64,000 bases of DNA from positions 34,444 through 98,443 of the IMG/VR virus record IMGVR_UViG_3300037264_002228; one strand, given 5' to 3'. The DNA is from a virus. Position 1 is the stretch's first letter; each line of letters starts with the position of its first letter. The translations under genes and the position numbers were made by a program. The notes beneath the pieces are model-generated. The model saw only the letters and a list, made by a program, of their open reading frames with translations, was not told the origin of the DNA and made no database searches. Of the stretch, positions 12,185-60,918 are shown in pieces.

Positions 12185-12225
12185 AATCAACCAGTATTTA
12201 AAGTCAGTTAAAAATAAGACGTTCA

Positions 12226-15410: not shown

Positions 15411-16913
15411 GTGTTAGCACGTATTACAGACAATGACTGGGTCTATTTAGATCAAGTAACAATGGGTGTAGAGCCTAGGTTAGTTGAATATTTTAGTGTA
15501 AAACACCCAAGAGCACACTTCATAGATACAATGCAACAAAGTTGGGATGGTGTCTATCGCAAATATGACACCAGGAGACAACGTTTAGCAAGACCGTTGT
15601 TATCTGAGCTTGTTCAGATGTGTCAAATCAATGATATACCACTCGAAATTAAGGACGAGCGACCTATATCAGAGCCACCAGATCCCAGTGTTGTTGGTAC
15701 GGATTGGTTGTCTGGGATTGTGTTAGAACAATATCAAATTGATGCAATTAAAACTACAACAAACGAAGAAGTTGGTATATTTAAACTACCAACTGGCGCT
15801 GGCAAGGGAGAACTGATTGCTGGAATTGCTAAGTTATTTAATTGCACGACAGTGATTATCGCTGAACAACGTGTTGTAATTGAACAACTTAAAAAAAGAT
15901 TATTATTACGTGACATATTTGATGTTGGTTTATTTTACGGTGGCGAAACGCCAACTGGACAAAAGATCGTCGTTGGTTCAATACAATCTATGGCGACACC
16001 ACCAGAATCGTATAAAGTTAAAAACCCACAAGCCTATGCTAAACGTTTTAAACACGCAAAACAATTCCAGGCAATCGCAAAGAATGCTGAATTATTAATG
16101 GTCGATGAAGTTGATAGGGCAGTTAGTAAACACTATAGAAATCTATTTAAATTTCATTTCAATGGACGTAGGAAATATGGCTTCACCGCCACGCCATTCG
16201 ACGCTAAGAAGCCAGTACAAAACTTAATATTAAAAGAACATATGGGATCAATCATTTACGAAGTTGATCGTAACTCTGTTGAGGATCTTGGTAGAATCAT
16301 ACCAGCAAAATTTTACATGTTAGCTGTTGGAGAAGATGGTAATAAAAATGATAAAACCGCATTTGATATAGCTGAACGTGAACAGCTAATTGACAATGTG
16401 GAGTTTCATCAACGTGTTGCTAAAATAGTAAGTGCATTTCCAAATGATTCAACATTAATCCTTGTTGATACCCTAAACGTAGAAGATCTTGGTACAGCTT
16501 TAGAAAAAGAAATACCTGGCTCAAAATTTATATTCGGCAAAACGCCAAACACAATCAGGCGTTCATCTCTTGAGGCCTTTGAAAATAAGGAATTAAGATG
16601 CCTAATTGGTGGTAAAATTCTTAAACGCGGACTAGATTTAAAGGGTGGTGTTGATAATTTAATAATCTGCGGCGGTGGCCAATTGTGGTCAGATTTAGAA
16701 CAAAAAATTGGTCGCGCACTTCGTGTTAATGAACGAAAATGGTCTAGAGTTTTTAATTTTTTGTTTCTTAATAACTATTATTTGTATCGACATGGCCGTG
16801 AGCAACTTAAGGCGATAGTTAGCATGAGATATCAGATTAATGTGGTATTCAAAAACGCTACAGTAGATGGTGCTCAGTTTGTATCGTCTAGATTTCGCAA
16901 ACCTAAAGTATAA
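15411..16913 (+). CDS. uvsW: SF2 DNA helicase, UvsW-like
   Basis: PTGAGKG Walker A, VDEVD, GFTATP, QKIGRALR; N-terminal WDG motif. Confidence 0.85.
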   Translation: MLARITDNDWVYLDQVTMGVEPRLVEYFSVKHPRAHFIDTMQQSWDGVYRKYDTRRQRLARPLLSELVQMCQINDIPLEIKDERPISEPPDPSVVGTDWLSGIVLEQYQIDAIKTTTNEEVGIFKLPTGAGKGELIAGIAKLFNCTTVIIAEQRVVIEQLKKRLLLRDIFDVGLFYGGETPTGQKIVVGSIQSMATPPESYKVKNPQAYAKRFKHAKQFQAIAKNAELLMVDEVDRAVSKHYRNLFKFHFNGRRKYGFTATPFDAKKPVQNLILKEHMGSIIYEVDRNSVEDLGRIIPAKFYMLAVGEDGNKNDKTAFDIAEREQLIDNVEFHQRVAKIVSAFPNDSTLILVDTLNVEDLGTALEKEIPGSKFIFGKTPNTIRRSSLEAFENKELRCLIGGKILKRGLDLKGGVDNLIICGGGQLWSDLEQKIGRALRVNERKWSRVFNFLFLNNYYLYRHGREQLKAIVSMRYQINVVFKNATVDGAQFVSSRFRKPKV

Positions 16914-41972: not shown

Positions 41973-42745
41973 ATAAATTGTTATTTATTGGTGGCCCATG
42001 TGTCATAGAATCAGAACAACATGCTATGAGGCATGCATCAGCCATAAAAGATATATGTACAAAATTAGACATAGATTTTATTTATAAAAGTTCCTATGAT
42101 AAAGCTAATAGGACGTCTGGCGAAACTTATCGAGGCCCAGGTTTAATTGATGGTTTATACATATTGAATAAAATTAAACATGAAATTGGCGTTAAGATAT
42201 TGACTGATGTCCATTCTGTTGATGAAGTGAAGTCTGCTGCGGTTGTAGTTGACGTGCTTCAAATTCCAGCATTGTTATGTCGTCAGACAGATTTAGTATT
42301 GGCTGCTTCGAGTACTCACAAAATAGTAAACATCAAAAAGGGCCAATTCATGGACCCATTGGCTATGAGGCATATATTAAAGAAAGCCTTATCAACTGGT
42401 AATAATAATATATGGTTATGTGAGCGTGGTACTACGTTTGGTTATAATAATTTAGTAGTTGATATGCGTTCAATACCAATAATGAAATCTTTTGGTTGCA
42501 AAGTAATAATGGATGCTGGACATGCAGTGCAACAGCCCGGTGGTCTTGGTAATGCATCCGGTGGGATGCGAGATATGATTCCGACGATGGCTCGTTGTGG
42601 TATCGCGGCTGGTGCTGATGGGTTGTTTATTGAAGTCCATGAAAATCCAGATGCTGGCCTAAGTGATGGACCGAATATGCTTAGATTAGATGATCTTGAA
42701 TCATTACTACGCCAAGCAAAAGAAATGAAAAATTTGCTCCTGTAG
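41969..42745 (+). CDS. kdsA: KDO 8-phosphate synthase
   Basis: GPCVIES, KSSYDKANRTS, TDVH, QIPA.LCRQT, KKGQF, ERG..FGYNNLVVD, H.VQQPG, SDG. Confidence 0.95.
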   Translation: MNKLLFIGGPCVIESEQHAMRHASAIKDICTKLDIDFIYKSSYDKANRTSGETYRGPGLIDGLYILNKIKHEIGVKILTDVHSVDEVKSAAVVVDVLQIPALLCRQTDLVLAASSTHKIVNIKKGQFMDPLAMRHILKKALSTGNNNIWLCERGTTFGYNNLVVDMRSIPIMKSFGCKVIMDAGHAVQQPGGLGNASGGMRDMIPTMARCGIAAGADGLFIEVHENPDAGLSDGPNMLRLDDLESLLRQAKEMKNLLL

Positions 42746-42809
42746 CCTATCGGTGAGGCAGGGATCTCTAAAATCTCATAGGTGAGTTCGACTCTCATCA
42801 GGAGCGCCA
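42736..42809 (+). tRNA. amber suppressor tRNA, anticodon CUA
   Basis: Acceptor GCTCCTG/CAGGAGC + G73 + CCA; D stem GCCT/AGGC with GG; anticodon stem GGGAT/ATCTC around loop CT-CTA-AA; T arm GTGAG-TTCGACT-CTCAT. Confidence 0.9.
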
Positions 42810-43775: not shown

Positions 43776-43920
43776 ATAAGCCGAGATTACCATAAGGCAC
43801 AGCCAGGGACCGCAGGCCGCACCAATAGCTGACGATTGATAGTGGGTTATTGGTCATAGTGCTGGCGATGGTGAACCATTGTCAGGTTCGTATATCAATT
43901 TATGGTAATTCTCGGCTTAT
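43776..43920. ncRNA. unidentified structured RNA closed by a 20-bp stem
   Basis: ATAAGCCGAGATTACCATAA pairs with TTATGGTAATTCTCGGCTTAT (one bulge); GC-richer interior with further helices. Confidence 0.55.
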
Positions 43921-43936: not shown

Positions 43937-44278
43937 ATGCAACCTAATGCAGTTGATCTTATACTGATGTGGCTAGAAGATAGAAATACGAGTAAATTTT
44001 GGACCATAAATCAAAAACGATCAACAGATTATGATACAATTTACATGGTCAGGGAAATAGAATACAAAACTCCAGCAATTAATGACTCTCCACTAAAGAT
44101 TGCAGTGAATATAACATTACCACACAATATTGAAATATGGTCTGTAAAATTACATGATGCATATTTTTTCGATAAGTTACAAAACATGATTAATAGTACT
44201 ATATCGGTGGAATTTAGTGATTTGCATAGAAAAATAACATCTAATAATTTAAGTTTAAGAGGTATGTATGTCGAATAA
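43937..44278 (+). CDS. small paralog-family protein
   Basis: VDLILMWL ... VKLHDAYFFDKL; ATG 43937 follows GTATTTAA. Confidence 0.55.
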   Translation: MQPNAVDLILMWLEDRNTSKFWTINQKRSTDYDTIYMVREIEYKTPAINDSPLKIAVNITLPHNIEIWSVKLHDAYFFDKLQNMINSTISVEFSDLHRKITSNNLSLRGMYVE

Positions 44279-51832: not shown

Positions 51833-51916
51833 CAAGAGCTGTATTTCACTATTAATAAGTGGCTTCTGCAAAGCGGGAATACATACGGAAACACTTGGAA
51901 ATATATTGGGAAAACA

Positions 51917-55897: not shown

Positions 55898-57286
55898 ATG
55901 AATAATGTATACATTAGCCCATTTACAGATCGGTATGCCTCAAAAGAAATGCTATATAATTTCTCGGCTGATAAAAAATTTAAGACCTGGAGACAGTTGT
56001 GGATTGCATTGGCAGAGAAAGAGAAAGAATTAGGATTACCCATAACTGATGTACAGATCGCTGAATTAAAAGATCATCAAAATGATATAAATTATGATGT
56101 CGCTAGACAATATGAAGAAAAGCTTAAACATGATGTGATGGCACATATTAAAGCATATGGCGATCAATGTCCAAATGCTAAAGGCATTATTCATTTAGGT
56201 GCTACTAGTGCATATGTTGTAGACAATACCGATCTAATTCTGATTAAAGATGGATATGACATAATTTTAAATAAACTAAGTGATATTATCAGTAAACTGA
56301 CCTTATTTGCTAAACAATATGCTGATCTGCCGACAGTTGCATATACACATTTTCAACCAGCTCAATTTACTACGGTAGGTAAACGCGCATGTTTGTGGAT
56401 ACATGATTTATTGCTTGATTTTGACGACATAACGCACAGATATACTAATTTGAAATTTCTTGGCGTTAAAGGAACTACTGGTACTCAGGCTAGTTTTATG
56501 GCCTTGTTCGACAATGATCAGCACAAAGTGACAAAATTAGATCGTTCTATTGCGTATAATATGGGATTTAATGGCACATACTCAGTAAGTGGACAGACCT
56601 ATTCTAGGAAAATAGATGCTCAAGTTCATTCGGTGTTAAGTGGTATTGCAGAATCTGCGCATAAATTTTCTAATGATTTAAGATTACTTCAACATCTTGG
56701 TGAAATTCAAGAGCCATTTGGCAAGGATCAGGTTGGATCAAGTGCTATGGCATATAAGCGCAACCCAATGAAGAGCGAGCGAATAGCGTCGTTATCACGA
56801 TTTGTATTGTCGTTGCAATCAAATGCTGATTTCACCGCTGCATCTCAGTGGTTTGAACGCACATTAGACGACTCTGCAGGCAAGAGGATAGCGTTGCCTG
56901 AAGCTTTCTTGGCTGTCGATTCTATATTACAAATATATCTTAATGTAGTGTCGGGACTAGTTGTCAATAAAGACGTAATTGATAATAATGTTAGGAAAGA
57001 ATTGCCATCAATTGTAACAGAAAATGTGTTGATGGCTGCTGTAAAAATTGGTGGCGACCGTCAAGAATTACATGAACGTATAAGACAATATATGCTTAGT
57101 GGTAAAGATCTTATTCAATGTTTGAAAAATGATGATGTTTTTAGTAAAGTTTCTAATTCTATAAAAGAAGATCCAATCAATTATGTTGGACGCTCGCAGG
57201 AACAAGTTGATGAGTTTATTGACAATGAGGTAAAATCAAGATTAGAGGTTATTTCTAATACTTGTGGATGTCCAGGCATCATATAG
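55898..57286 (+). CDS. purB: adenylosuccinate lyase
   Basis: RYAS.EM, HDVMAH, IHLGATS, THFQPAQ, GSSAM.YKRNPM.SE, QWFERTLDDSA. Confidence 0.95.
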   Translation: MNNVYISPFTDRYASKEMLYNFSADKKFKTWRQLWIALAEKEKELGLPITDVQIAELKDHQNDINYDVARQYEEKLKHDVMAHIKAYGDQCPNAKGIIHLGATSAYVVDNTDLILIKDGYDIILNKLSDIISKLTLFAKQYADLPTVAYTHFQPAQFTTVGKRACLWIHDLLLDFDDITHRYTNLKFLGVKGTTGTQASFMALFDNDQHKVTKLDRSIAYNMGFNGTYSVSGQTYSRKIDAQVHSVLSGIAESAHKFSNDLRLLQHLGEIQEPFGKDQVGSSAMAYKRNPMKSERIASLSRFVLSLQSNADFTAASQWFERTLDDSAGKRIALPEAFLAVDSILQIYLNVVSGLVVNKDVIDNNVRKELPSIVTENVLMAAVKIGGDRQELHERIRQYMLSGKDLIQCLKNDDVFSKVSNSIKEDPINYVGRSQEQVDEFIDNEVKSRLEVISNTCGCPGII

Positions 57287-57360
57287 ATTGTCGCAAGATA
57301 AATAATTTTGTGCAAAAATACTTACAAGCGTATTTAAAGAACATAATGGTTACAAAGATA

Positions 57361-57796
57361 TCGTCAAATCTGTGGTCTAATGAACTCGTGTCCCTAGCGG
57401 ATACGCGGTTTAGTGGGTTGCATAATACACAGCCACAACCCACCCTCGCCGCCGCCTATAAGCGCGGTAGCGAGATCGGAGGTTTGACGGGGTAAGCTTT
57501 AAAGAAAAATTGAGATTTTAATGAGCCCCGCGCTTTCGAAGGAAGGTTGCGGGGCTCAAGCTTTATTTGGGATATGCGGGTCCCGTCGATTGGTAGCCAT
57601 CAGGTTCGCCTGGGTGCTGATCGTACTAGTGGCGTGAACAATTGTGTTCACAACAATTTGACAATTAGGTTAGAAAAGAGCAAAAGACGTAGGGAGGGCC
57701 AAGGAGTCCACCTTGGCCCTCCCTTGCGTAGGCTTAAGAAATATTTGTAATTAGCATCGGAAGCGAAAGCTAATATGCTTTGGTCGTAAGACCAAT
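57361..57796 (+). ncRNA. unidentified multi-hairpin RNA upstream of the tRNA array
   Basis: GC-rich island with a closed multibranch domain (57361-57490) and successive hairpins, some with UUCG/GNRA loops. Confidence 0.55.
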
Positions 57797-57799
57797 CAT

Positions 57800-57875
57800 G
57801 GGTAGGCATGTACCAAGGGGGCGACACTGCCTTGCAAGCAGAGTGTGGTGAGTTCGATTCTCATCCTATCCACCA
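57800..57875 (+). tRNA. tRNA-Ala(UGC)
   Basis: GGGTAGG/CCTATCC with G3:U70, loop CTTGCAA, TTCGA, CCA. Confidence 0.9.
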
Positions 57876-57946
57876 AAATTGTTATTAGCGCCGCCATTTG
57901 AGGCGCGTGGCTAATGACGTATACTTGAATGCTAAGCATTCATTAT

Positions 57947-58030
57947 GGAAGTGCTCGAAAGTGGGATTTCATGCGGACTGTAAATCCGTTGCCAAATGGC
58001 TAAGTGGTTCGATTCCTCACACTTCCACCA
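57947..58030 (+). tRNA. tRNA-Tyr(GUA), atypical D and T arms
   Basis: GGAAGTG/CACTTCC, loop CTGTAAA, long variable arm, CCA. Confidence 0.8.
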
Positions 58031-58038
58031 TAAAATTA

Positions 58039-58115
58039 CAGGCACAGGGTCAGATAGCGGGCCGCCTGCCTCGGAAGCAGGAGTCAGCGCAGTGCAAGTC
58101 TGCGGTGCCTGACCA
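58039..58115 (+). tRNA. tRNA-Pro(CGG)
   Basis: CAGGCAC/GTGCCTG, loop CTCGGAA, T loop TGCAAGT, CCA. Confidence 0.8.
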
Positions 58116-58116
58116 T

Positions 58117-58194
58117 CAGGGTGTAGCTCAGATAGTGATGAGCGCATGTTTTGGATACATGAGGTCGCTGGTGCGAGTCCAGTCACCCTGACCA
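58117..58194 (+). tRNA. tRNA-Pro(UGG)
   Basis: CAGGGTG/CACCCTG, loop TTTGGAT, T loop TGCGAGT, CCA. Confidence 0.85.
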
Positions 58195-58207
58195 TAAAAA
58201 TTAATAT

Positions 58208-58914: not shown

Positions 58915-58917
58915 AAT

Positions 58918-58995
58918 TGCCAAGCACTCTGTATCGGTACGGAGACGAGTCTCTGAAACTCGGCGCTGCTGGTTCGACTCCAGCCTTGGCAGCCA
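58918..58995 (+). tRNA. tRNA-Gln(CUG)
   Basis: TGCCAAG/CTTGGCA, loop CTCTGAA, CCA. Confidence 0.88.
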
Positions 58996-58996
58996 T

Positions 58997-59180: not shown

Positions 59181-59577
59181 GTAAAGGATGCGGACAATCG
59201 CGGTCATAAGTGATCGAGGAAAGTCCCGGCTCCAAAGAGTAAGATGGTCGCTAACGGCGGCACAGCGTAAGCTGATGGAAAGTGCCACAGAGACTATTCC
59301 TGCTCAAGTCAAGTGATTGTTGTTGGCGGCGTAGCTCATGATGCCTCGCGAAAGCAGGAGGCTAGAAGTAGAAGTCAACAATTTATTGTGAGCAGCTTGA
59401 TAAGAGTAAGGGTGAAAAGAGGTAAACCCCATCTGGAGCAAGGCTAAATAGGAACACTGGGCTACTCGCTCGATAAGTGTTCGGGTAAGCTGCTTGAGGG
59501 TACCAGCAATGGTATTCCCAGATAGATGATTGTCACCCATAATATGGGTACAAAACCGGGCTTATAGCATCCTTTAC
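59181..59577 (+). ncRNA. rnpB: RNase P RNA (bacterial type-A-like, lacking P13/P14)
   Basis: P1 GTAAAGGATGC/GCATCCTTTAC; GAGGAAAGTCCCGGC, AGTGCCACAGA, GGGTGAAA, GGTAAACCCC..GGAGCAAGG, GGGTAAGCTGCTTGAG, AGATAGATGATTGTC, ACAAAACCGGGCTTA in the canonical order. Confidence 0.95.
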
Positions 59578-59585
59578 AACTTGGA

Positions 59586-59627
59586 GTGGTTGGAGGGCTA
59601 ACGCAATGTTAGTCCCTCCAACCACCA
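59586..59627. terminator. strong hairpin between convergent transcripts
   Basis: GTGGTTGGAGGGCTAAC-GCAAT-GTTAGTCCCTCCAACCAC; no U tract on the plus strand. Confidence 0.45.
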
Positions 59628-59636
59628 TGACGGGGG

Positions 59637-60071
59637 CTAATTTTCTATTTTATTTGCAATATTTTGAATTGGGTTTGGCCCACTACAAGCAGACTGTAGG
59701 ATGTTTGTTATGTTGTCAATTAACTCATCGTCAGTCATCTGTGAATGCTCGTCATATAATTTACTAAATCTCTCTGATAGAAATGGTTTAATATCGTTTT
59801 CACCATTTGGATTTATTAGTTGTATAAACCATTTCTTTGTGGTAAAATGTTTAACAACATAACAAACAAATGGGTTTCGTCCTTTGTAACCAAATTCATC
59901 GTCGTCATGTAAACCAAATGATTGGTGGTCTTCATGTTCAATAGCGATACTTGCTTTATTAGTTCCTTTTAAATGTTTTAGATCAAGTGAACGATGTTCA
60001 ATAGGTTGTCCTGCATACCAATGTGTGTACATTAATTCTATCTTTAGACATTCTGGGATTTTTTGATTCAT
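59637..60071 (-). CDS. hypothetical protein (GLHDDDEF motif)
   Basis: 144 aa; shares motifs with the adjacent ORF. Confidence 0.6.
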   Translation of the reverse strand: MNQKIPECLKIELMYTHWYAGQPIEHRSLDLKHLKGTNKASIAIEHEDHQSFGLHDDDEFGYKGRNPFVCYVVKHFTTKKWFIQLINPNGENDIKPFLSERFSKLYDEHSQMTDDELIDNITNILQSACSGPNPIQNIANKIEN

Positions 60072-60078
60072 AAATTAA

Positions 60079-60534
60079 TCAATAATCAATTTTATTAGCA
60101 ATTTGTTGTATTTGGTTCGGTGGACACGAATTGTTTAAATAATCGACAATAGTTTGTTTAATGTTTGATGTAGATTTCTTATAAATTTTTTCTATTTCAT
60201 CTACCATTCTGTGATCTGTTTCGTTATATCGACCGCCGGTAATAACATCAAATAAAAACCAATAATCAAAAAAGACAGTCTGTTTTGTGACAAGTGGTTT
60301 CTTACTAAAATGTAATGTGATGCCAGAATTACGACCACTATTGCCAAAAGTATCGTCATCATGAAAACCAATATTTGTTATGTGATCATTATGGACGATT
60401 CTCATTGATATAATATCGATTGGACGTTCAGTATTATATGATGCATTGTCTAATATGTTGATGTCATTAGTAGTATCTACTATGTTTGTGCCATGTTTTC
60501 TAACAATTTTGATGCTGAAACAATTTGGGACCAT
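60079..60534 (-). CDS. hypothetical protein (GFHDDDTF motif)
   Basis: 151 aa; shares the HDDD motif and C-terminal IQxIANKI with its neighbour. Confidence 0.6.
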   Translation of the reverse strand: MVPNCFSIKIVRKHGTNIVDTTNDINILDNASYNTERPIDIISMRIVHNDHITNIGFHDDDTFGNSGRNSGITLHFSKKPLVTKQTVFFDYWFLFDVITGGRYNETDHRMVDEIEKIYKKSTSNIKQTIVDYLNNSCPPNQIQQIANKIDY

Positions 60535-60732: not shown

Positions 60733-60918
60733 ATGATGTCAACTACAGAACGGGCTAAGCGTAGCCGTGCTATGAAGGCGTTTCACGCTCGTCGTCGTGA
60801 AGCTAATGAAAGTCGGTCATACACTCTACGTGACTATTGGGAGTTCAGCGAGGAAGCTATTGCACATCGTGCGAAGCTCAGCCGCGCCATGAAGCGTTGG
60901 TGGCGTGCGAATCGCTAA
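60733..60918 (+). CDS. small Arg-rich protein with internal repeat
   Basis: AGGAG RBS; RAKRSRAMK / RAKLSRAMK duplication. Confidence 0.7.
   Translation: MMSTTERAKRSRAMKAFHARRREANESRSYTLRDYWEFSEEAIAHRAKLSRAMKRWWRANR

Follow-up and report, generated by a model that had tools for sequence, protein, structure and literature searches.

A strongly folded leader with a conserved open reading frame heads the tRNA and RNase P RNA array of a T4-like huge phage

The DNA analyzed here is a 64,000-nucleotide (nt) window, bases 34444-98443 of a 98-kilobase (kb) IMG/VR record (IMGVR_UViG_3300037264_002228; CheckV completeness 23%). It is a fragment of a T4-like huge phage, and its genes include those for a T4-type terminase, a portal, a major head protein, and a baseplate. 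Between purB and an array of at least 15 transfer RNA (tRNA) genes lies a leader that is strongly folded as a plus-strand RNA, is conserved in a relative (the IMG/VR contig G003) and in a strain variant (X4), contains an open reading frame (ORF) that is also open in the relative, and belongs to no described RNA family. The promoter box, the structure, the frame, and the order of the parts recur in G003. We interpret the element as a composite leader that acts in cis at the 5' end of the tRNA/RNase P RNA operon, made up of a leaderless mini-gene and of hairpins for processing or stability; we hold this interpretation tentatively, giving it a little less than an even chance. The leader ends at 57799, since tRNA-Ala(UGC) occupies 57800-57875, and its parts, with this first tRNA, are as follows.

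57330-57337, plus strand: promoter-like motif GTATTTAA, a phage late-type -10-like box whose plus-strand copies are restricted to gaps; GTATATAA stands at the same place in G003.
57346-57495, plus strand: mini-ORF of 49 codons plus stop (TAA at 57493-95), its ATG 8 nt after GTATTTAA; also open in G003.
57361-57490, plus strand: domain A, a closed four-helix fold with the closing helices P1/P2 and three hairpins in the minimum free energy (MFE) structure.
57522-57558 (57522-31/57549-58), plus strand: hairpin B, about 15 base pairs (bp), beginning 27 nt past the stop codon.
57569-57633, plus strand: variable insert with a CAGG-UUCG-CCUG hairpin (57601-12), missing from G003.
57634-57651 (57634-40/57645-51), plus strand: hairpin D, GUGAACA/UGUUCAC, 7 bp with the loop AUUG; G003 has an equivalent.
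57657-57669, plus strand: invariant box UUUGACAAUUAGG, a 13-mer followed by a purine-rich spacer; the same in G003.
57687-57729, plus strand: hairpin E, with a 14-bp G+C-rich core (57691-704/57711-24).
57747-57778, plus strand: hairpin F, whose outer stem AUUAGC/GCUAAU is shared by a paralogous hairpin past tRNA-Ala (57883-57915).
57780-57795, plus strand: hairpin G, UUGGUC-GUAA-GACCAA, 4 nt ahead of tRNA-Ala.
57800-57875, plus strand: tRNA-Ala(UGC), the first tRNA of the array (ARAGORN -ps90; 82% by blastn to annotated phage tRNA-Ala genes).

The stretch 57330-57800 (471 nt) folds at -190.9 kcal/mol, versus -134 ± 6.6 kcal/mol for dinucleotide shuffles (z -8.5). Compared with shuffles, 57340-57799 reached z -9.2 on the plus strand and -5.5 on the minus strand, and for two coding controls of 461 nt z was -1.0 and +0.3. 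The G+C content is 46-49% in the leader and about 35% in its surroundings. By sub-domain, z was -5.3 for A, -3.8 for B, -7.2 for D-E, and -3.8 for F-G; the stretch with the UUCG hairpin (57570-57636) behaved like shuffles (z -0.2). Because the closing helices contain four G-U pairs, z is weaker on the minus strand, and the UUCG and GUAA tetraloops lie on the plus strand, the predicted folds point to an RNA made from the plus strand. An earlier reading of this DNA from its letters alone (hereafter the sequence-only reading) had listed these hairpins and taken the stretch for a strongly structured head of the tRNA array. All of its hairpins were found in the sequence where it had placed them, and its general view was borne out, with z about -9 and the position at the array head kept in G003 and in the strain variant.

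Two sources provided usable relatives: contigs of public sequencing runs, and IMG/VR contigs found via the major head protein. From the DNA run X4, a 15.5-kb contig is colinear with 56300-57877 at about 98% identity. In the leader it differs at positions 57514, 57560, 57574, 57759, 57784, 57787, and 57791 and has insertions after 57530 and 57673; the substitutions outside hairpin G and 57560 fall on bases that are unpaired in the MFE fold, and the insertions adjoin MFE-paired bases (57530 in hairpin B; 57673). The major head protein matched 80 IMG/VR contigs at 74-88% identity, and leader similarity was found in 1 of the 24 large relatives among these, namely G003 (125 kb, capsid 87%). The minus strand of G003 carries, in order, a conserved AT-rich upstream stretch, GTATATAA, an ATG 7 nt on, a folded domain, hairpin B, a small hairpin, the 13-mer, a purine-rich spacer, two strong hairpins, and the first tRNA (Gly-UCC). 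Its leader has a z of -9.6 and is without a counterpart of 57569-57633. At the place of purB, G003 has a DUF5658 membrane ORF.

The public runs were examined as assembled contigs, from which RNA ends and abundance are not readable. A single RNA-library contig (record 17) links purB, the leader, and tRNAs without a break; this fits with transcription of the region but does not prove it. Run X2 covers the leader at flat depth, possibly as DNA, and run X12 leaves 57348-58002 without a contig, one of its contigs ending at 57344; neither was used as evidence. An RNA contig in run X16 stems from a relative of roughly 89% identity and covers 57634-57824. A blastn search of the leader against GenBank phages matched the tRNA-Ala only, and the G003 leader gave no matches. 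Synteny of purB in IMG/VR led to three loci, all without the array, and exact DNA patterns searched in IMG/VR returned nothing, chance matches, or G003 only. The 151-residue array ORF found no relatives, and the 165-residue neighbour gene found G003 only. A metagenome scan, dominated by bacterial purB at no more than 63% identity, did not find leader relatives; a genome contig scan matched only an unrelated tRNA-Leu; and the array heads of the more distant G004-G006 showed no similar leader. A single-sequence covariance model of domain A was not used on other genomes because the true G003 homologue scored 6.2 bits. The evidence is thin, since the leader family was found only in the window phage, its strain variants, and one IMG/VR relative.

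The motif at the start of the leader has the shared form GTATWTAA in both phages. In the 98-kb record, 10 of 10 plus-strand copies of GTATTTAA lie in gaps ahead of plus-strand genes, and both of the 2 minus-strand copies lie inside genes. The copies in the window start at 12194, 15397, 43924, 51132, 55885, 57330, and 60706, with the variant GTATTTCA at 51841 and 59168. The 5' end of the RNase P RNA as given by Rfam lies 6 nt past the end of one GTATTTCA copy, a spacing that would be expected for a -10-type box and its start site. In purB (ATG 55898), a gene at 15411, an ORF at 43937, and the mini-ORF, the box is followed by the start codon at a distance of 5-8 nt; this spacing suggests that several mRNAs of the phage are leaderless and come from a late-type promoter, and the mRNA of the mini-ORF is probably one that lacks a leader of its own. 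A sigma-70 promoter in the 13-mer (TTGACA) was considered and rejected, neither phage having a usable -10 at 16-18 nt.

Two other GTATTTAA boxes stand beside small features. A G+C-richer element at 43776-43920 is closed by a 20-bp inverted repeat, with a GTATTTAA box 3 nt further on and a 113-codon ORF starting 5 nt past that box. Inside the tRNA array, a 61-residue basic ORF (60733-60918) comes with a Shine-Dalgarno site and a GTATTTAA box of its own; no known family matches it, and it has a counterpart of 54% identity in the G003 tRNA array (L292 5623-5444, minus strand).

In G003 the frame of the mini-ORF has 45 codons, with its ATG 7 nt past the motif and its stop at the corresponding place. 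The gaps of the nucleotide alignment over the frame are 3, 3, 3, 3, 2+1, and 4+5; the frame is kept in 113 of 132 aligned columns, with offsets of 6, 3, 0, 12, 12, and 12 nt at the anchoring blocks. The amino acid identity is 43%. Differences by codon position amount to 14/18/26, a spread close in proportion to that of the bona fide small gene 60733-60918 in the same pair of genomes (21/20/34); the 165-residue neighbour shows 43/24/89. The peptide had no significant Pfam or PHROG match. We consider it reasonably probable, though far from certain, that the mini-ORF is translated.

Domain A lies wholly within this frame. P1 (57361-71/57480-90) is followed by the 6-bp P2 (57373-78/57473-78), and these helices enclose hairpins at 57381-93/57399-412, 57413-20/57436-43, and 57447-57/57461-72. 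Against shuffles, the ORF region has z -4.3 in the window phage and -3.9 in G003, and an equally G+C-rich small control ORF has +0.8 and +0.2. The nearly identical 5' strand aligns 14 columns of P1/P2, which form pairs in 13 cases here and in 12 in G003; the 3' strand differs in sequence and has a one-base bulge in G003. From the window phage to G003 the changes are A-U to G-C, GxG to U-G, U-G to U-A, G-U to G-C, and U-A to U-G, i.e. one A-U/G-C swap and four wobble-mediated changes. In hairpin H1 the five basal pairs are identical, followed by a C-G here that is G-C in G003 and by two further pairs.

Past the stop codon, hairpin B has its outer 9 bp identical in G003; its apical part differs there but pairs, and the 27-nt spacing from the stop is the same. 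The sequence after it is AAGCUUUAUUU here and GUGCGUUUAAAG in G003, the latter having no U tract. In hairpin D, an A-U pair has become U-A and another A-U has become G-U in G003. The 13-mer UUUGACAAUUAGG is unique in each of the two genomes; it is unpaired in the local fold of G003, and here its first six bases take part in a weak helix. In both phages 6-7 of its bases are able to pair with the 5' strand of P1. With one mismatch allowed, its matches in 53 related records were no commoner than those of a reversed control. At the position of hairpin E, G003 has a different, 12-bp G+C-rich hairpin; a role of hairpin E as a terminator was rejected, since it would act on the minus strand only, where none is needed, and there is no plus-strand U tract. 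In hairpin G of X4, 57784 U>C is accompanied by 57791 A>G (U-A to C-G), which is one clean compensatory event; a third substitution, 57787 U>C, changes the loop from GUAA to GCAA, with the GNRA form retained. Covariation, which the sequence-only reading had wanted from homologues, is thus present as pair-preserving or compensatory changes in P1/P2 and D (G003) and in G (X4), in few events.

As a composite leader, the element would work as follows. Transcription would start about 7 nt past GTATTTAA, at or next to the AUG of the mini-gene, whose 49 codons would be read without a ribosome-binding leader. The mini-gene mRNA would be folded on itself, its 5' part pairing with its 3' end around the three hairpins. 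Past the stop would come the very stable, conserved hairpin B, the small hairpin D, and the single-stranded 13-nt box, to which a protein probably binds; further stable hairpins would follow in series up to a distance of 4 nt from tRNA-Ala. A cut by RNase P at tRNA-Ala would free a leader of about 455 nt, and hairpin G would shield its 3' end. The start site, the translation of the mini-gene, the processing or protection by hairpins, and the protein binding to the box are steps that we infer, and our confidence in any mechanism is moderate at best.

Several observations weigh against this proposal. The in-frame protein similarity between the phages is 29.3 bits, versus 28.9 bits in a reverse frame that contains stops, and a search of 1.8-5.8 billion proteins for relatives of the peptide yielded nothing beyond the near-identical copy P0121. 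Inside the ORF, the three hairpins do not occupy homologous positions in the two phages; e.g., the GGUUG partner of the shared CAACC segment lies upstream of it here (H2) and downstream of it in G003 (H3). The X4 substitution G57560A disrupts a predicted AAGCUU/AAGCUU helix, which is unsupported for that reason, and the covariation rests on few events because the comparison covers two diverged members and near-identical strains only. We read the combination of a kept frame and shifting inner hairpins as maintenance of the frame with selection for a compact fold, not for one fixed RNA architecture. A plain non-coding RNA (ncRNA), one option of the sequence-only reading, is not supported for the three-hairpin domain, which coincides with a frame that is also open in G003, with frame-preserving indels and inner hairpins that are not homologous.

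The sequence-only reading is supported in so far as the leader is structured, conserved, and without a family. Its picture of one ornate ncRNA comparable to GOLLD or ROOL is not supported, domain A proving to be a shared open frame and the UUCG domain being absent from G003. In its broadest form, the ncRNA alternative makes the leader a source of one or more stable trans-acting ncRNAs, resembling RNAC and RNAD of T4 or, loosely, GOLLD and ROOL, that would be transcribed together with the tRNAs and freed by RNase P, the ORF being a coincidence of G+C-rich sequence. We regard it as unlikely. The very strong folding in both phages, the pair-preserving changes in P1/P2 and in hairpins D and G, the UUCG and GNRA tetraloops on the plus strand, and an in-frame protein similarity no better than that of a non-coding frame would all agree with it, as would the position next to tRNAs, like that of T4 RNAC/RNAD (PMC3014915). 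However, the frame is open in both phages, with an AUG 7-8 nt after the box, the same stop, and triplet indels, and we estimate the joint chance of these features in a non-coding sequence at well under 1%. Moreover, the inner hairpins of domain A differ in position, as those of a conserved ribozyme or of an RNA recognized by a protein would not; one sub-domain, absent from G003, can be dispensed with; and Rfam has no match.

That the leader is a diverged member of a known family (tmRNA, GOLLD, ROOL, 6S, signal recognition particle (SRP) RNA, a riboswitch, or a ribozyme) is exceedingly improbable. No Rfam 15 family reached its gathering score within the leader. A cmscan of 57200-58200 at expect (E) values up to 10 placed only chance microRNA and small nucleolar RNA rows (E 2-10) inside 57330-57796; the GOLLD, ROOL, 6S, and SRP models had no match at E up to 10 in this leader or in that of G003, and no riboswitch, ribozyme, or RNase P model of Rfam matched inside 57330-57796. 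The Rfam comparison that the sequence-only reading had named as its check (GOLLD, ROOL, tmRNA, SRP, 6S) thus left its claim of novelty intact. In favor of a known family one could cite the sole tmRNA-model row, at 16.4 bits (cut-off 47), but this is tRNA-Ala 57800-57875, outside the leader; ARAGORN found no tmRNA in the leader at default or relaxed settings. A true tmRNA (99 bits) exists elsewhere in the G003 tRNA array, at 1983-2329 on the minus strand (L292, G003:C1). A 'tRNA-?' at 57562-57639, reported by ARAGORN with thresholds down to 70%, is not credible.

The sequence-only reading had also raised the possibility of an attenuating leader. What holds of it is the short 5' ORF (57346-57495), which is open in the window phage and in G003, begins and ends at matching places, has indels that come in multiples of three, and whose translation is predicted; what fails is the switch, with no plus-strand terminator and no competing antiterminator. 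A consensus scan found no intrinsic terminator on the plus strand of 57330-57796. When a 28-nt mask representing a ribosome was moved along the frame, in steps of two codons here and of one codon in G003, the pairing probability of hairpin B was 1.00 throughout, and no antiterminator excluding hairpin B appeared under the masks in either phage; an alternative pairing by an 8-nt complement (57460-67/57528-35) never displaced it. The 5' strand of the third hairpin reads GCC GCC GCC UAU, Ala and Tyr being the first two downstream tRNAs, but the Ala codon run is not retained in G003, where the first tRNA is Gly. Codons read by array tRNAs make up 18 of 49 in the mini-ORF, versus 22 of the 61 sense codons, which is no enrichment (hand count). 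Classical leader-peptide attenuation was rejected because there is no plus-strand terminator or antiterminator, hairpin B is always folded, array codons are not enriched, and the Ala run is not conserved.

A looser link to translation, in which the leaderless mini-ORF would act as a test peptide and the progress of the ribosome would gate the tRNA and RNase P RNA genes via Rho, a processing enzyme, or the 13-nt box, is improbable in our judgment. It would make sense of a conserved short ORF at the 5' extreme of a non-coding operon, inside a fold closed by its own ends, of the GCC triplets and UAU that match the first tRNAs, and of the pairing potential between the 13-mer and the 5' strand of P1 in both phages. 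The amino acid diversity of the peptide is also unusual, with 19 of 20 amino acids used here (P = 0.12-0.18) and 20 of 20 in G003 (P = 0.012-0.02), two values that are not independent because the phages are homologous. Against it stand the lack of a plus-strand terminator, a hairpin B that has no U tract in G003 and is folded under every mask in both phages, the unenriched codons, and the absence of the Ala run from G003. Non-classical translation-linked control is possible but unsupported, and the specific claim that the mini-ORF and its closed fold form a sensor of translation capacity, gating the phage tRNAs and RNase P RNA by a non-classical route, is slightly less probable still.

Inside the array behind the leader lies a complete bacterial RNase P RNA of type A (59182-59580; 229 bits, Rfam). 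No RNase P RNA was found in any of 24 capsid-related IMG/VR records, including four that are 98-100% complete (354-408 kb). A long perfect hairpin at 59583-59630 separates the RNase P RNA, at its 3' end, from the end of a minus-strand ORF (59637-60071) and is likely a two-way terminator. The tRNA-Ala(UGC) has a weak D arm; ARAGORN overlooks it at default settings and detects it at a relaxed threshold. Like it, tRNA-Pro(CGG) at 58045-58115 needs 90% thresholds, these tRNAs having degenerate D arms or odd T loops. In X4, positions 26 and 44 of tRNA-Ala are altered together, from C-G to G-C. Elsewhere in the window, a tRNA with the anticodon CUA at 42736-42809 is of the amber suppressor type (labelled Pyl by ARAGORN), although TAG stops are still used by genes of this genome, e.g. 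by purB at 57284-86.

Comparison of X4 with the window also revealed replaced and missing segments in the array: 57878-58024 (spacer and tRNA-Tyr region) is exchanged for 157 other bases, 58917-58996 (a Gln(CUG)-like tRNA) for 180 other bases, and 59640-60088 (449 nt) is deleted, together with the ORF 59637-60071, while the leader is still colinear. These differences point to a modular turnover of the array between strains. Short direct repeats (CCAAGGAGTCCAC/CCAAGGGGGCGAC, CTCCCTTGC/CTGCCTTGC, and TTGTAATTAGC/TTGTTATTAGC) connect 57699-57755, in hairpins E-F, with 57799-57889, i.e. tRNA-Ala and its trailing hairpin, and may reflect a decayed duplicate module. One could go further and see in the whole leader the leftovers of duplicated tRNA-plus-spacer modules, G+C-rich hairpins without a dedicated function in a fast-changing array, as these repeats, the segment replacements and the 449-nt deletion, and the different 3' hairpins of the two phages might suggest. 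We find this very improbable, because the order of the elements, the stem of hairpin B, the 13-mer, and the frame are kept although the neighbouring proteins are only 54-68% identical, hairpin G shows a compensatory change, and relaxed ARAGORN runs found no credible tRNA remnant in 57330-57796.

Around the leader lie purB and genes for a KpsF-like isomerase, a sugar dehydratase, and a 2H phosphoesterase. The purB relatives P0002-P0004 are 81-84% identical, and the best non-phage matches of purB are labelled Planctomycetota, which suggests, from these matches, that the host possibly belongs to that phylum.

By position, the closest known analogue of the leader is the pair RNAC and RNAD, the small stable RNAs (species 1 and 2) of the tRNA region of T4, whose roles are unknown (PMC3014915). 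In both cases a structured RNA that is not a tRNA is encoded within a T4-like phage's tRNA cluster or beside it; the likeness is one of position only. Unlike RNAC and RNAD, the element described here stands at the 5' head of the array behind a promoter box, extends over about 455 nt in several domains, and carries a conserved open frame. GOLLD and ROOL are likewise large, G+C-rich RNAs of many hairpins beside phage tRNA genes, but the leader is shorter, is in part an ORF, has one dispensable sub-domain, and is found in closest relatives only.

With attenuators of the trpL, hisL, and pheL type, the leader shares a short 5' ORF laid over strong helices, ahead of translation-linked genes. It differs in having no U-tract terminator, no exclusive antiterminator, and no conserved run of regulatory codons; in addition, its ORF is longer (45-49 codons) and probably leaderless, and tRNAs rather than biosynthetic enzymes follow. 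With rRNA leaders and the lambda nut site (boxB-boxA) it shares a hairpin and then a conserved single-stranded box, in this case hairpin D, whose pairing is kept, and the invariant 13-mer, ahead of a long untranslated operon. However, UUUGACAAUUAGG does not fit the boxA consensus GYTCTTTAANA (PMC5725501), which is gamma-proteobacterial and may not be that of the host, and, unlike in nut sites and rRNA leaders, the 13-mer lies about 310 nt from the start and occurs as a single copy rather than before each RNA. In layout the leader is nearest to leader-peptide leaders and rRNA leaders, yet it fails the defining tests of each.

To our knowledge, the control, processing, and stability of the tRNA arrays of huge phages are almost unstudied, and the leader offers a concrete, conserved, and testable unit of such control. 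It also advises caution: reading frames should be checked before fields of G+C-rich hairpins beside phage tRNAs are named ornate ncRNAs. If the mini-gene is untranslated, the leader, at about 450 nt, would define a phage RNA family not described before. If it is translated, selection would act on one stretch of 150 bases for a coding frame and for a stable RNA fold at once, which is rare, and this would open the question of whether the supply of phage tRNAs is coupled to the state of the host ribosomes.

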